DNA of 64,000 nucleotides from an uncultured Chlamydiae bacterium (GTDB lineage: Bacteria; Chlamydiota; Chlamydiia; Chlamydiales; JAJFMA01), in the NCBI GenBank assembly GCA_963713615.1, contig CAVQMM010000001.1, positions 2,304,001 to 2,368,000 on the forward strand, written 5' to 3'. A program made the translations under genes and the position numbers. Of this stretch, positions 1,259 to 62,617 are shown piece by piece (the first letter of the stretch is position 1; every line of letters begins with the position of its first letter). The notes below the pieces were generated by a model that did no database searches, was not told the origin of the DNA, and saw only the letters and a program-made list of their open reading frames with translations.

Positions 1259-2010
1259 GAGGTAATTGCAGAAGTCCGATTCTCCGAAGTCAATTTCCTG
1301 AAAATCGGATGCCGGTGAAGAGAGAGTCATTCCCTTCCCAGGCCCGAAGGGTCGATATTGCAACAGGCCATGGCATCGCCACATAGTCCTCAACCTAACA
1401 GGTCTTTTGAGCTTATATCTCAATGACTTAGGACTTCACAATCGTATCTCGGCGCGCAGCGCTTTGGAGTGCGGTCGCTTGCGACCGCTTTTCGTTCCTT
1501 GGGACGGCAATGCTAAACGGCATTGTATGGATTCGTCGAAGGCTGCATGTACTAACTATTTTACCCTTAGGGAATTATAGTAATGCCGTTGCACACGACC
1601 GTCGCAAGGAACCCAAAGCGGTCGCAAGCGACCGCACTCCAAAGCGCTGCGCGCCGAGATACGATTGTTAGGCTTAGGTTGAGGCCTATGTGGCATCGCC
1701 ATGGTATATGCCAAAACGGTTTTAGCAGCCTGTAGGGCTGCCATAAAGCGCATGCATAAATGGTGTTTGTAAACTGGCGTCTTGTAGCAGTCCTTCGGAC
1801 TGCGAAATCCCTTCCTGGCATATACCATGGCGATGCCATGGCCTGTTGCAATATCGACCCTTCGGGCCTGGGAAGGGAGAAAAGCCTGTCTTTCCAGACT
1901 GGATAGTGCCATACCACTTAAGCTCTCTAGAATCGCCTTCTCACAAAAAAAGGTAACCTTTTTTCCCGAGAATCGATTCTCAAGGGCTCAAATAATTTTG
2001 CAATTACCTC
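1259..2010. mobile_element. Composite nested MITE: element C (TIR GAGGTAATTGCA) containing B (1331-1878) containing E (1382-1690) containing A (1438-1668)
   Basis: Four concentric inverted-repeat pairs read directly. E is flanked by the 11-bp direct repeat TGGCATCGCCA (1371-1381, 1691-1701). The uninterrupted B unit is seen at about 21740-21970. Confidence 0.85.
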
Positions 2011-2126
2011 TTTTGGTCCTTTAAAAAGCGGCACGAATCGTTGCTACGCCCTAAATCCGTGGCTAAAAAGGAGGTTAATAGCTTAAGATAAGTATATCTA
2101 AACAATCTCGCCCAGGACGTCATTCT

Positions 2127-3161
2127 ATGCCAACTAGAGAAGGAATCTTCAAAGGTGCCCTCCGCGTCTGTGTTATGACCTTAGCGGCCTTTATTGGTGT
2201 TGCATTGGGTCTATTCGTCTTGCTGCTGTTAGTGCCGGATGGGGACCAGTTGGATCGTCGGACTACCGTTAAAATTCTACCAAATGCCCAAGGCGAGCGA
2301 AAAGTCTTAGGAAGTTCTGGACCTGTCATCCTATCGATAGACATTAAGGGCGTGGTGGGTATGGATTCGCTAACGGACGATAAGATGTCTTCTCTTTTAG
2401 TAGAGTCGCGAGAAGGAAGCCTCAAAGACCGTGTAAAAGCTATATTGCTCCGCGTGGATAGTCCTGGGGGTACGTCAACAGATTCCAAAGCCATCCACGA
2501 TCTGATTCAGGAATATAAAGAACGCTACAAGGTACCCGTGATTGCTCATGTCGAGGGATTATGCGCCTCCGGTGCCATGATGATCTCCGCAGCAGCAGAC
2601 AAAATTGTTGCCTGCGATGGGTCATTGATAGGCAGCGTTGGTGTCATTATGCCCACGGTTTTCAATGTGGCTGAGGTACTGCAAAAGTACGACGTCAAGG
2701 CTCTAACCTTAATGGTGGGTAAGGATAAAGATGTTCTTAACCCATTCCGCCCTTGGAAGGCCGATGAAGCCGCGACGATTCAACCTCTTCTCGACTATAC
2801 CTACGACCTCTTTGTTGATCTCATGGTTAAGGACCGCCCTCGCTTAAATAAAGACAAACTCATCCATGAATATGGTGCTCAGATGTATGCGGCTAACAAA
2901 GCTGCTGAATTGGGTTACATCGACGAGGCTGGATATTCGCCATCCAAAGCTCTAGAACTCACCGTGGAAGCTGCAAAGCTAAAAGGCGAGGACTACCATG
3001 TGGTCCAGCTCACCACTAAGACATGGGTAACGGAACTCTTCCAAGAACGCACATCATTACTAAGCGGCAAGATCACGCATCAAATTCAGCTCAACCCCGA
3101 CGTACCTCCTGAATTGATGAACAAGATGCTATACTTATATCTGCCAACAGGAACACTCTAG
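2127..3161 (+). CDS. sohB: S49 family peptidase (SppA/SohB-like)
   Basis: N-terminal TM helix; motifs LRVDSPGG, CASG, GSLIGSVGV. Located upstream of polA as in Chlamydia. Confidence 0.8.
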   Translation: MPTREGIFKGALRVCVMTLAAFIGVALGLFVLLLLVPDGDQLDRRTTVKILPNAQGERKVLGSSGPVILSIDIKGVVGMDSLTDDKMSSLLVESREGSLKDRVKAILLRVDSPGGTSTDSKAIHDLIQEYKERYKVPVIAHVEGLCASGAMMISAAADKIVACDGSLIGSVGVIMPTVFNVAEVLQKYDVKALTLMVGKDKDVLNPFRPWKADEAATIQPLLDYTYDLFVDLMVKDRPRLNKDKLIHEYGAQMYAANKAAELGYIDEAGYSPSKALELTVEAAKLKGEDYHVVQLTTKTWVTELFQERTSLLSGKITHQIQLNPDVPPELMNKMLYLYLPTGTL

Positions 3162-3193
3162 ACTGGCCCATTCACATAACCCTCGGCCTCATC

Positions 3194-60146: not shown

Positions 60147-60585
60147 TTATATATTTCCTACTTGCATTTAAATCAAAGACAACTATATCATCATAAAAAT
60201 TTAAAAACAAGCTATTATATTTATTCTTTCTACCATCTTTATCCAAAAATATATTGATTAACAATTGTAAAAGCTTTCGTCTACCTGGCTATCTTTGACG
60301 CTTACCGTCTTATGGCAATCCTTCAGATCATCACTCGGTGCGTAGCGCTTTGGAGTCATAGGCATCAACTTAAGCAACTAACTGCGCCCTCACAATCGTA
60401 TCTCGGCGCGCAGCGCTTTGGAGTGCGTGTCGCTCGCGACCGCTTTGGGTTTGGGTGAGCCTATTGAATCGCGCACCGTTCTACGGAGGCTGCCCCCCCA
60501 CAGTTACCCCTAGAGAGAAGGGTTACGTTCTTGCAATGCCAACTTCGCCCAAATCCAAAGCGGTCGCGAGCGACGCGCACTCCAA

Positions 60586-62463
60586 CGAAAGTTCACCCCT
60601 AATTTCCCCACTACTTTGATCGTATTGTGATGAATATAAATGCTTTGCATCACTATTTTTCCGAAAAAATGTAGTCACTAAAATAATTATTCAAATATCA
60701 TCTAAAATATATTGTAGATATATTTATTATGCGTATAATGTAGTCCAGTTATATGATGGAAACTGTATGTACATTGCAAAATCAACGTCCAAGTCTAAGT
60801 CTGGAAAGGTTTACGAGTCTATTTTGCTTCGTGAATCATATAGAGAGGGCACAAAGGTTAAAAACCGCACACTGGCTAATCTTTCAGGGTGTTCTAAGAG
60901 TGATATTGAGGCTATTAGGCTAGGTCTGAAACATAAGGACAATCCTACAATCTTGTCCAAGGACAGTTTTAGCATTGTTCAGGGCAGATCAGTTGGAGGA
61001 GTGTTCGTTCTAAAGCAATTGGCAGACAGTCTTGGGATCACAAAAGCCCTAGGTGATAGTTTCCACGCTAAACTTATCCTTTGGCTTGTCTTCGCAAGGA
61101 TTCTTGAGCAAGGCTCTCGCCTGTCGGCGGCAAGACTGGTCCTAATCTATGATATTGCCTCCATAATCAACCTCAACCGAGGTTTTGATGAAAATGACTT
61201 TTATCAAAGCCTGCATTGGGTAGCCAAAAATCAAAGTTCCATTGAGAATTCGCTTTTCAGGCTTAGGCGTTATTCTGGGCAATTTTACTGGTACGATGTA
61301 ACAAGCTCATACTTTGAGGGCACGCAAAATGCCTTGGCTGCCTATGGACACAACCGCGACAAGAAGAAAAGAAAGAAGCAGGTCGTTATAGGACTGTTAA
61401 GCATCAATAATGGAATGCCAGTCTCCGTCGAGGCCTTTGCAGGCAATACCCAGGACACTCTGACTTTTCAAAATCAGTTAGACAAAATTAAAGCCAGATT
61501 TGGCTGCAAGAACGTTGTCCTAGTTGGTGATAGAGGAATGATTCGGAACAAGCAGAAGCTATTGCTAAAGGAATACGGGTTTGGATATGTCACAGCCTTG
61601 ACTCTTCCTGAGATGAAATCGCTAATAGGCGCAGAGATTCTTTGTCTGGATACATTCACGAAAGATCTTCAATCGATTTGTCTTGAAGGCAAGAGATACA
61701 TCTATCGGCGCAATCCTGGACGTGCTTTAGAAACCCAATCACAAAGAGAAGAACGCCTATCTACCGCTCAAAGGCGCGTGGATCAAGAAAACAAAAAACT
61801 TGAGTCTAAGCCTACAATGTCAGCGGTGCTGGCAAAGAATCGAATACGACAATATCTAAAAAAACTATGCATTGCAGAGTGGGTCAGTGTTTCCGTCGAA
61901 AAAAGGCAATTACGTTTAGAGATCGACCAGGAGCGGCTAAAAGAAAAATCTAAGTTTGACGGTTGTTACGTATGGACAACGGAATTAGGTAAGGAAGAAG
62001 CTTCTGACCTAGAAATTTTCGAACGATACAAAGACCTAAAATACGTTGAGGATGATTTCAGAACCTTCAAGAGCAATTTTTTGGAAATCAGGCCGATTTA
62101 TGTAAGAACAGTAGAGAGCACCAAGGGGCACATATTTATCACTATGCTGGCTCATATGATTGTAAGAGAGCTGCGTTCAAGGTTAGCTGAAGTAAATATG
62201 ACTGCAGAAGAGGCCCTGCGAGTGTTAGGCCTTATATGTCAAAATTCAATAAAGTGCTCAGATGCGGTGACCATTGAAATGATCCCTGCCCCCTCCAAGG
62301 AGGCCACTAACATTTTGAGCGCTCTACAAATTACCATGCCAAAGCAAATCCAGGTGGCCACAAGTAATGTAGTCACTAGACACAGGACAAGAAAAGGCCT
62401 CTAAAAGTCGAAAAATCAACACTTTAGGTAGGTGTTTTTTTCAAAAACAGGGGTGAACTTCCG
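60586..62463 (+). mobile_element. IS1634 copy 3 (1878 bp)
   Basis: TIRs as in copy 1 (one mismatch on the left); TSD CTCCAA (reverse complement of TTGGAG) at 60580-60585 and 62464-62469. Confidence 0.93.
60767..62404 (+). CDS. IS1634-family transposase
   Basis: Protein identical to 27596-29233 in the ORF track. Confidence 0.92.
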   Translation: MYIAKSTSKSKSGKVYESILLRESYREGTKVKNRTLANLSGCSKSDIEAIRLGLKHKDNPTILSKDSFSIVQGRSVGGVFVLKQLADSLGITKALGDSFHAKLILWLVFARILEQGSRLSAARLVLIYDIASIINLNRGFDENDFYQSLHWVAKNQSSIENSLFRLRRYSGQFYWYDVTSSYFEGTQNALAAYGHNRDKKKRKKQVVIGLLSINNGMPVSVEAFAGNTQDTLTFQNQLDKIKARFGCKNVVLVGDRGMIRNKQKLLLKEYGFGYVTALTLPEMKSLIGAEILCLDTFTKDLQSICLEGKRYIYRRNPGRALETQSQREERLSTAQRRVDQENKKLESKPTMSAVLAKNRIRQYLKKLCIAEWVSVSVEKRQLRLEIDQERLKEKSKFDGCYVWTTELGKEEASDLEIFERYKDLKYVEDDFRTFKSNFLEIRPIYVRTVESTKGHIFITMLAHMIVRELRSRLAEVNMTAEEALRVLGLICQNSIKCSDAVTIEMIPAPSKEATNILSALQITMPKQIQVATSNVVTRHRTRKGL

Positions 62464-62617
62464 CTCCAAAGCGCTGCGCGCCTATTTACGAAGTTAGTTG
62501 CTTAAGTTGATGCCTATGGCTTGACTACTCACGAAGTTATGCTGGATTTCTCAATCGAGCTCTCGTACGATGAACAAGTCGATAAGTTACGTCTGACCTG
62601 GGCTAGCTCTCAGCTTG

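Follow-up and report, generated by a model that had tools for sequence, protein, structure and literature searches.

Nested repeats in a chlamydial genome form a chain in which cargo and target links for mobile elements alternate

Introduction

Insertion sequences (IS) that target REP repeats have already been published, and those treated by Tobes and Pareja (2006, PMC1525189) include ISPsy8, ISPa11, ISPpu9, ISPpu10, ISRm19, ISRm22, IS1397, ISKpn1 and IS621; the accessible text of that paper names the IS3, IS110, IS4, IS256 and IS5 families, with no occurrence of the term IS66 and with IS1634 not in the list. As there, all or nearly all copies of an aimed IS in the genome considered here lie at one REP position, and several families in the same genome are aimed and others are not. 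However, the targets in the text of PMC1525189 are free REPs, whereas here REPs are carried by MITEs in a five-level chain. We found neither such a chain nor REP-aimed members of the IS1634 or IS66 families in the literature; ISfinder, like figures or additional files of PMC2266710 and PMC1525189, may list such targets. In the accessible parts of PMC2266710 and PMC6199540, descriptions of the IS231 subgroup, whose ends recur in one of the layers reported below, are nearly confined to the Bacillus cereus group.

The window, i.e., the whole stretch of DNA that was analysed, comprises 64,000 nucleotides of an uncultured Chlamydiae bacterium (GCA_963713615.1, contig CAVQMM010000001.1). The host genome is near-complete, with a 3.9-Mb contig.

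Results

Nested repeats in the window and across the genome

An original prediction, made from the window alone, described palindromic repeats A, B, C and E that are nested in one recurring order and capture every IS. The repeats were present where it had placed them (Table 1) and far above chance: single 16-mers reach up to 339 genome-wide occurrences, and 240 exact matches were counted for the end pattern of C versus 0 for the reversed control. Genome-wide mapping revealed five layers of parasites stacked at many loci as D > C(B) > E(A) > IS, with about 90 copies each of C and E and 260-380 arms of A and B. The chain thus recurs throughout the genome, although C is not its outermost layer as had been supposed, since D lies outside it (four arrays in the window, including one at 29847-29868), and the nest at 60357-62518 departs from the predicted order, consisting of E2 in an A arm without B or C. 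The second nest, predicted at 27310-29897, is present but extends to 32112 through another C>B unit that holds an IS110; the A pair thought to stand alone does lack E but adjoins another repeat family, and C+B without E was confirmed at its predicted place.

Table 1. Positions of the repeat layers and insertion sequences within the window
Feature	Position	Strand
Outermost layer D, array of 9-10-nt periodicity (1232-1253), where C sits	1232..1258	+
C MITE, backbone of about 431 bp, terminal inverted repeats, B pair inside, E inserted	1259..2010	.
B arm, left part, split by E; 1371-1381 duplicated at 1691-1701	1337..1381	+
E1 MITE, 309 bp, IS231-type ends, 11-bp duplication, A pair as cargo	1382..1690	.
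A pair, cargo of E1, two inverted REP-type arms (1451-1493 and 1616-1658)	1451..1658	.
Second B arm of first nest, intact	1824..1872	-
A pair not inside E, 91-94% similar to the cargo of E1; adjoins other repeat family at about 13626-13676	13677..13895	.
D array	21534..21564	+
C(B) lacking E, 493 bp; recombinant whose two ends are alike, duplication absent	21609..22101	.
D array; left C end absent here	27172..27202	+
E1 with A and IS1634a inside, splitting a B arm (27316-27360 and 29562-29578)	27361..29561	.
IS1634a, 545-aa transposase (27596-29233), 6-bp duplication in A	27415..29292	+
Second C>B unit of second nest, split by IS110	29898..32112	.
IS110, 398-aa recombinase (30448-31644), at 2-base core in B arm	30185..31948	+
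Predicted bridge RNA of IS110	30259..30405	+
Nest after ruvA	39098..43712	.
IS1634a copy, frameshifting indels in assembly, 6-bp duplication in A	39296..41178	-
IS66a, fused TnpA-TnpB frame (42856-43437), tnpC (41409-42773)	41201..43494	-
A arm harbouring E2	60327..60356	+
E2 MITE subtype in A, not B; carries A pair with second spacer type	60357..62518	.
IS1634a, intact (60767-62404), 6-bp duplication in A	60586..62463	+

The C copy at 1259-2010 is flanked by inverted D arrays but lacks a 4-bp duplication; target duplications are absent at both C copies of the window and for E at 27361 and 60357, and the two flanks of E1 at 27361-29561 are unlike each other, i.e., hybrid. The nest after ruvA is composed of a partial C, a partial B, an E end (39241), A, IS1634a, IS66a, A again, a worn E end and half of B. 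None of the five IS of the window interrupts a host gene, as predicted, but two of these supposedly autonomous elements are not intact in the assembly: the IS1634a copy at 39296-41178 has 8 gap openings relative to an intact copy, and the tnpC of IS66a at 41201-43494, which made an 8-bp duplication in the A hairpin, is shortened by a one-base gap. These indels may be assembly errors. The proposed comparison of empty and filled loci in relatives, carried out for ruvA only, did reveal an empty site in G001 (gap below 100 bp); in G002 and G003 the genes are arranged differently, and in G004 the locus is occupied by other repeats.

Hairpins A and B and their Y1 partners

A and B are REP-type hairpin pairs. 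The 384 A arms are short extragenic hairpins in inverted pairs, 88% of whose bases are non-coding by a crude ORF map (78-88% for A and B arms), and both families together occupy 3.6% of non-coding DNA. A large part of them lies in or beside a MITE (210 of 263 intact B arms with C, 206 of 384 A arms with E). Rfam gave no match in the window, and DNA folding of A and B arms was non-significant in two of three stretches.

Both Y1 transposase genes are located outside the window, elsewhere in the genome. The predicted partner kinds (RAYT, IS231-like and IS5-like) appear to be right, and the suggested search for a REP-associated Y1 transposase yielded a partner for A and a candidate partner for B. 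A RAYT gene at C1:3256780 lies between inverted A arrays (NF047646, 83.9 bits; cut-off 80), and an IS200-like Y1 gene stands at the head of a B array, which is present on one side only, its protein scoring 57.6 bits with the IS200-like model (cut-off 55) and 22.4 with the RAYT model. A Y---Q motif and a class 3 foot were seen by eye in the B system. The foot of A is conserved but differs from the canonical tetranucleotide rule at the second base. Y1 homologs in relatives carry co-varied A-like and B-like arms; for example, a RAYT homolog with 50% identity in G003 is accompanied by inverted A-like arms with a changed stem.

Layers D, C and E

C is a gene-less element of 431 bp with IS5/IS1182-like ends that carries a B pair (in 90 of 94 C pairs genome-wide) and sits in D, an array flanking four-helix-bundle genes. 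The D core was found within the outer 12 nt of 200/260 C ends, nearly all at two fixed offsets, against a background of 5.5%. Because duplications are often missing (4-5 bp in only 35 of the 94 pairs, none in 32) and C haplotypes are mosaic, recombination must have altered many copies and could also be how some filled states were copied.

E1, also gene-less (309 bp), has IS231-type ends, carries an A pair and occupies one 11-bp site of B. Genome-wide, A is present in 90/93 E pairs, 175 of 182 E1 ends abut B, 24 of 27 E2 ends abut A, and 71/94 E pairs show an 11-bp duplication. Its end signature and 10-12-bp duplications are those of the IS231 subgroup of the IS4 family. The E1 copies, with just 2 variable columns, are almost identical; joint movement of some E+IS composites could therefore go unseen, and the linkage test described below is weak.

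Full-length IS4/IS231 and IS5 elements with the same ends had been expected. IS4 elements with the ends of E and elements with C-like ends do exist in other genomes, but none was detected in the genome itself. All three scanned elements with E-type ends pass NF033592 and 5/7 match the YREK pattern; they are mostly 28-38% identical to one another. Metagenome relatives lie in hairpins, often with 19-21-bp duplications. Elements of 1.4-1.6 kb with C-like ends have 4-bp duplications (L070, L272, L285, L286 and L297); L070 scores 68.8 bits with IS1182 (cut-off 270) and 63.3 with IS5_4 (cut-off 140), both below threshold, and full-length chlamydial relatives sit in AT-rich sites, not in D. Within the host genome, neither the transposase of C (query L070) nor that of E (query L201; NF033592, none above cut-off) was found, a search that included tblastn with 11 proteins for both layers. 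The PF01609 matches inspected there were ISAs1, IS1634 and IS701-like elements by their ends and proteins (named by eye). As transposases were not found in the genome itself, we infer mobilisation of C and E in trans from their end sequences.

Aimed and unaimed insertion sequences

The claim that the repeats capture every IS was contradicted genome-wide. Three IS types have 34/35 copies in A or B, each at one site (IS110, 9/9 in B; IS1634a, 8/8 in A; IS66a, 17/18 in A with one copy off target), whereas nine other types have only 2/62, as expected from the 3.6% share of A and B in non-coding DNA (Fisher p 1e-22, with copies not fully independent; ISAs1b was tallied by its 7 right ends only). 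The proposed enrichment of IS in the repeats over background therefore holds for the aimed types and not for the others. The genome has two IS1634 and three IS66 types, and the unaimed ones include the second IS1634 and the other IS66 types. Since aimed and unaimed members of the same families are present in one genome, the target choice of DDE transposases becomes directly testable. Insertions in long open frames account for 3/34 aimed versus 11/52 unaimed paired copies in a crude test, which does not establish a gene-sparing benefit.

TnpA and TnpB of IS66 elements are usually separate. In IS66a, which has TnpA, TnpB, TnpC and the 8-bp duplication of the family, they form a single frame in 16/16 scored copies, and its accessory-gene relatives match the TnpB half only. 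IS66a and IS1634a occur in both orientations, in both arms and in both A spacer types. Aiming by structure alone is unneeded for IS66a: of the sites of its 12-bp palindromic motif, 360 lie in A and 165 elsewhere, 32 of the latter being non-coding. IS1634a (NF033559, 290 bits; 6-bp duplication in 6/7 paired copies) uses a fixed G+C-containing site in A in all eight copies, rather than AT-rich targets as do relatives with 45-47% identity in G172 and G084; outside A, 439 non-coding sites match its hexamer, which gives p 0.002 for finding 8/8 in A.

IS110 has a DEDD recombinase, a core dinucleotide and ordered target and donor guides, the guides being predicted. In the predicted bridge RNA, two guides (30281-30287 and 30307-30313) match B and two others (30354-30360 and 30390-30394) match the joined IS ends; the four are in the expected order in the IS left end, which 0/3000 shuffles match. 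The element is also inserted next to the Y1 gene, in a B copy that has diverged. A search of 200 genomes of the phylum for IS110 relatives that could show guide co-variation found none at E 1e-40.

Discussion

The nests are alternating cargo and target links in a chain, not a general safe harbour, and each inner element lies at one fixed site of the enclosing layer. Up to five layers are stacked per locus because gene-less mobile elements carry hairpins that are targeted by the next element, and the stacking likely arose by repeated aimed insertion rather than by movement of whole stacks. It is quite probable that the whole chain D > C(B) > E(A) > IS has this origin, with an aimed insertion of its own for each inner element. 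A and B probably multiplied at first as the REP pairs of two Y1 (RAYT-type) transposases that the genome still encodes; an IS5/IS1182-like and an IS4/IS231-like MITE would then each have captured one hairpin pair and amplified it in trans via transposases that searches of the assembly did not find, so that every burst would provide fresh targets for the next element. IS110 may be aimed by base pairing of its predicted bridge RNA with B, IS66a by preference for a 12-bp palindromic sequence that A happens to saturate, and IS1634a and E are predicted to read the hairpin or an extended flank. Later recombination between copies likely produced hybrid, inverted and tandem forms.

The original prediction that composites move as units is supported for C(B) and E(A), each a unit of two layers, but not for whole stacks. 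If an entire composite were one transposon, moved by its outer C ends or a larger carrier, the order could have been copied from a single founder stack. C and E ends are indeed intact around their cargo, many stacks are of equal length (752 or 3055 bp), tandem C(B) arrays were found, and three C copies share stretches of their outer flanks (about 40 and 125 bp). However, equal lengths follow from summing fixed-size parts, those three copies differ in their E state, and C haplotype is linked neither to E state (permutation p 0.22) nor to E sequence (Mantel rho -0.05, p 0.62, n=31), which makes this origin quite unlikely. Identical C haplotypes are either empty or hold E in either B arm and either orientation, i.e., in all four states, so the inner layers arrive independently. 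The same four E states on one C haplotype also speak against the spread of filled states mostly by homologous recombination or gene conversion, in which few IS insertions would have been copied into sister repeats via common flanks. In its favor are the mosaic C haplotypes, the hybrid or missing duplications at 32/94 C pairs and at some E and IS copies, and the long repeated flanks around each IS; against it, IS66a and IS1634a each occupy at least five classes of arm, orientation and spacer by their flanks, the duplication of IS66a matches the local A variant, and IS110, whose predicted guides match B, also occurs in the diverged B copy next to the Y1 gene. We regard this explanation as unlikely on balance.

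The repeats do act as landing pads, as was originally proposed, but the accompanying notion of a safe harbour is not general, since only three IS types are aimed. According to that notion, insertion would be random and IS would persist only in intergenic repeats that the host can spare, which agrees with the intergenic position of 5/5 IS in the window and with the largely non-coding nature of A and B arms; for IS66a, the 12-bp motif together with loss of genic insertions accounts for 17/18 (p 0.56), and such selection may contribute. As a general rule it is refuted and very improbable: insertions fall at single bases instead of being scattered across the repeats, the nine other types are almost absent from A and B, including members of the same two families, and the 439 alternative hexamer sites were not used by IS1634a. 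Collapsed-repeat misassembly appears extremely improbable as a source of the nests. Indel errors are indeed suggested by frameshifts in the G6PD gene and two IS copies, and no record spans a whole nest, but family-typical exact duplications occur at each level, flanks are unique, the contig is 3.9 Mb long, and short-read contigs of other runs bridge an IS110-B junction (X3 record 23) and the IS1634a-A-E2 junction, the latter with zero differences (X5 record 24); in those runs, repeat pieces are far deeper than unique genes. No empty-site joint was present in contigs of the sequencing runs (small shares, 0.05-0.17).

Beyond the chain of cargo and target links itself, we tentatively suggest that the parasites form a self-building succession in which a MITE benefits from bearing another family's target, that IS1634- and IS231-like DDE transposases read hairpin structure and not sequence, and that D is a mobile repeat of REP-like kind whose spread depends on a four-helix-bundle protein, not on a RAYT. 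If true, one chain would link six mobilising systems, and compact DDE enzymes would be able to aim at a single site.

The chain shows that mosaic repeat clusters can be built by rule, with gene-less elements multiplying the landing sites of other elements, and comparison with the accessible descriptions of known systems indicates where each layer is familiar and where it differs. A and B resemble REP/REPIN-RAYT systems (10.1101/279083; PMC3733652) in their extragenic inverted hairpin pairs with hundreds of copies, a repeat-flanked single-copy Y1 gene and co-variation in relatives, but the four-base foot of A is non-canonical and most pairs are located inside MITEs; the partner of B resembles class 3 (IS200-like), with its array on one side, when compared with 10.1101/279083. 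E is similar to IS231/MIC231 cassettes (PMC2266710; PMC6199540) in end signature, 10-12-bp duplication and non-autonomous derivatives, those of IS231 being moved in trans, and differs from MIC231 in that its cargo is a REP pair. C is like IS1182/IS1272 elements, which target palindromes (PMC5678879), and like IS5 in its 4-bp duplication and frequent position between inverted arrays, but its target D is a periodic array rather than a single hairpin as for IS1272; its putative transposase scores best with IS1182/IS5 models, though below both cut-offs. The position of C in D ties a MITE target to unexplained arrays beside four-helix-bundle genes. IS1634a has the 545-aa DDE transposase and 6-bp duplication of the IS1634 family, which is described with AT-rich targets (PMC2266710), and instead uses one G+C-containing A site; IS1634 and IS66 are thereby added as candidates for REP-aimed families. 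Finally, the IS110 here is like IS621 (PMC11208160) and ISPpu10 (10.64898/2026.03.19.712850) in its short core, lack of duplication, REP target and left-end RNA with two target and two donor guides, which are predicted in our case, and unlike them has B as a new target, supplying a predicted natural bridge RNA with a new specificity.

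Nested repeats in the window and the genome

The nests in the window are real: contigs from other public runs bridge the junction between the IS110 and B and that between IS1634a, A and E2 (one of two E subtypes) and carry identical host-gene pieces, which speaks against misassembly, and none of the public-run contigs compared spans a whole nest. Empty and filled states could be compared at the ruvA locus, where the relative G001 has a homolog of the next gene within 100 bp and the window's genome has a 4.8-kb nest. The hairpin repeats A and B and the gene-less MITEs C and E all lie where the original prediction had placed them, but it missed D, a fifth, outermost repeat. 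Its second nest is present and holds an overlooked second C > B unit with the IS110; at 60357 it is the second E subtype that sits in A, without B or C. The five autonomous IS copies exist, two of them with indels.

The window is C1:2304001-2368000 of a genome (3.97 Mb in three contigs) that probably belongs to an environmental chlamydia, judging from a DUF562 protein. Repeated 16-mers cover about 12.6% of it, and fuzzy matching with window slices detected 384 A arms, 263 intact B arms, 260 C ends, and 229 E ends genome-wide. Two kinds of exact 30-32-nt repeats (49 and 32 copies genome-wide) are also present, which we take to resemble CRISPR repeats.

Coordinates of features in the window, on contig C1 (CAVQMM010000001.1) and at compared loci
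Feature	Position	Strand	Remark
Glucose-6-phosphate dehydrogenase	window 9237-10770	-	split into two frames that overlap, probably by an indel in the assembly
Intergenic tandem repeat, 50-nt period	window 16899-17098		before Fic-domain gene (17115-18653)
1113-aa protein with internal repeats	window 23704-27045	+	without Pfam match
Second C > B unit of second nest	window 29898-32112		
IS66a TnpA-TnpB frame, window copy	window 42856-43437	-	
Ankyrin-repeat protein	window 50349-51929	-	
Dispersed palindromic repeat of another kind	window 58254-58393		deep coverage in contigs from public runs
DUF562 protein	window 58641-60146	-	
C(B)+D tandem array	C1:476526-478848		
C(B)+D tandem array	C1:1173286-1175135		
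C(B)+D tandem array	C1:2273505-2277289		
C(B)+D tandem array	C1:2600817-2603043		
C copies with common flanks	C1:309695, 656695, 3645703		
GxxExxY gene and arrays	L250:1370-1960 (C1:1855174)		
GxxExxY gene and arrays	L251:1240-2420 (C1:1921790)		
C-type ends around A-like hairpin	L007:30-215		genome G026
166-bp palindrome within C-type ends	L009:1500-1666		genome G002

Target and cargo links

Element ends of twelve IS types were mapped by BLAST. Genome-wide, all nine IS110 copies are located at the same base of B, 8/8 IS1634a copies at one 6-bp site of A, and 17 of the 18 IS66a copies, facing either way, at a single 8-bp site of A. A and B cores make up 3.6% of non-coding DNA. By contrast, only 2 of 62 copies (counted by eye) of nine other types, named by eye from proteins and ends without a family scan (IS1634b, 9; IS66-like b, 11; IS66c, 6; IS21, 7; IS607, 8; ISAs1a, 10; ISAs1b, 7; ISL3, 3; IS1634c, 1), lie in A or B; the counts do not include a broken IS701-like element, fragments of group II introns, or one more type present only in part. 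The proposed capture of every IS is thus not borne out, and among the types counted the expected enrichment is confined to these three specialists.

Fixed sites also connect the outer layers. E1 ends abut B in 175 of 182 cases and E2 ends abut A in 24 of 27 (20 further ends are neither E1 nor E2), and a D core lies within 12 nt of 200/260 C ends, with two offsets accounting for almost all of them; for random positions in non-coding DNA the share is 5.5%. Because B is found inside 90 of the 94 paired copies of C (about 431 bp, gene-less, with terminal inverted repeats) and A inside 90/93 E pairs (E1 being 309 bp), B in C and A in E are cargo links, and the others are target links. Target duplications of C are 4 bp long in 31 pairs, 5 bp in 4, and 1-3 bp in 27, with none in 32; an 11-bp duplication accompanies 71/94 E pairs. 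In relatives, C-type ends surround an A-like hairpin, a cargo other than B, or enclose a palindrome adjoining D-like cores.

Site selection by the three IS

The 12-bp palindromic motif of IS66a occurs at 360 sites within A and at 165 elsewhere, and its 17/18 copies in A exceed expectation over all motif sites (p 0.01) but not when the comparison is restricted to non-coding sites (p 0.56), and therefore sequence preference is enough for this element. For IS1634a, the hexamer alone does not account for 8/8 copies in A (p 0.002), and the flanks of relatives of 45-47% identity (in G172, right flanks only) are unrelated and for the most part AT-rich, so IS1634a would aim by reading the flank or the hairpin.

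The left end of IS110 folds into stem-loops (z -2.7). Along it, segments that match the left target come first, then those for the right target and for either side of the junction of the IS ends, which is the arrangement published for IS621 (PMC11208160, excerpt). None of 3000 shuffles reached its guide score. The left guide matches 7 bases in the B variant adjoining a Y1 gene and 5 in the common B variant, and exact 11-bp target sites number 250 in B and 7 outside. The sites of IS1634a and IS110 overlap what appear to be the four-base feet of these repeats (A and B, respectively), which are the parts that relatives keep, and these kept feet may explain the site choice of both elements. In 16/16 scored IS66a copies, a single frame of 193 aa spans TnpA and TnpB, and its relatives match the TnpB half only.

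Candidate partner transposases

A search for a REP-associated Y1 transposase flanked by A or B had been suggested, and both repeats have a candidate. Among six Y1 genes in the genome, a RAYT gene lies between inverted A arrays and an IS200-like gene stands at the head of tandem B copies, an array into which an IS110 has inserted; altered A-like or B-like arms occur at homologs in the relatives G003 and G001. The other four (L001, L002, L004, L005) comprise an IS200-like gene that has short repeats of its own, one between members of a separate palindrome family, and two long genes whose short terminal repeats recall the TIRYT group.

Full-length elements with E-type ends (IS4 family) and with C-type ends (putatively IS5- or IS1182-like) were found in other genomes and metagenomes, but neither the C nor the E transposase was detected in the assembly. 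Among 76 metagenome loci listed, nine distinct 1.4-1.7-kb elements with E-type ends carry long frames, and 3/3 scanned passed an IS4 model. The 11-bp site of E1 presumably resembles the IS231A target consensus. E ends and duplication length fit the IS231 signature (PMC2266710 Table 1, excerpt). At E-type metagenome loci, folding of 41/152 outer flanks surpasses that of 95% of the corresponding shuffles, and 44/153 flanks have a canonical REP foot (background 10%). Of 34 paired elements, 10 have 19-21-bp and 3 have 10-11-bp duplications, with none by a strict rule in 21; the longer ones, often a whole hairpin (L137, L139, L173, L182, L210, L220, L225, L226, L247), resemble what the cruciform model describes as its pathway b (PMC5678879, excerpt). 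Short elements in many phyla have C-type ends, and so do two full-length elements flanked by 4-bp duplications, L070 and one present in ten copies in G105.

Evolution of the stacks

Movement of composites as units, as originally suggested, is not supported for whole stacks. In an alignment of the 61/94 C pairs with a full-length backbone, inserts removed, one common C haplotype is empty at some loci and elsewhere carries E at either arm and in either orientation. In the 31 C copies that hold a single E, distances between C sequences show no linkage to those between E sequences (rho -0.05, p 0.62), and copies in the same E state are not closer to each other (p 0.22); E1 has just two variable columns, and thus this linkage test has low power. 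E+IS composites may move together. Since C copies diverge by about 6% and there is next to no divergence among copies of E1 or of the IS, the sequences are consistent with C being older than both. Some flanks are hybrid or inverted and some copies form tandem arrays, which indicates that recombination followed; it is known to erase duplications (PMC11708052). Four C(B)+D tandem arrays have a period of about 455-473 bp and 4-9 copies each. In three C copies the flanking sequence is common over about 40 bp on the left and 125 bp on the right, which suggests a still larger carrier element.

Outer D arrays and four-helix-bundle genes

Arrays of at least three D cores number 144 genome-wide, 132 of them non-coding (shuffles, 0-2). 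D arrays box both four-helix-bundle-suffix genes (TIGR04258) of the genome. Within the phylum, at least three periodic pairs lie on a flank at 14/16 such loci and further away at none. In four other phyla (81 loci, 6 dropped without alignment), at least three such pairs flank 22/75 loci versus 1/142 control windows. Our literature search found no paper linking D-type arrays with these genes. In other phyla, seven such genes (L382, L384, L385, L389, L409, L410, L406) apparently stand directly before cas or restriction-modification genes, as judged by eye from downstream sequence. Inverted arrays also enclose two GxxExxY genes; they belong to two additional repeat families with dispersed copies elsewhere in the genome.

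Comparison with known systems

Precedent exists for every single link of the chain. REP-aimed members of the IS3, IS110, IS4, IS256, and IS5 families (PMC1525189, excerpt) and of IS481, the hairpin-seeking IS1272 (PMC5678879, excerpt), bridge RNAs (PMC11208160, excerpt), and REPtrons have all been published. A literature search covering few subscription papers, without ISfinder, found neither a REP-aimed IS66 or IS1634 nor a chain of REP-carrying MITEs. What is new is how deep the chain runs and how complete it is within a single genome, together with IS1634 and IS66 members that are aimed.
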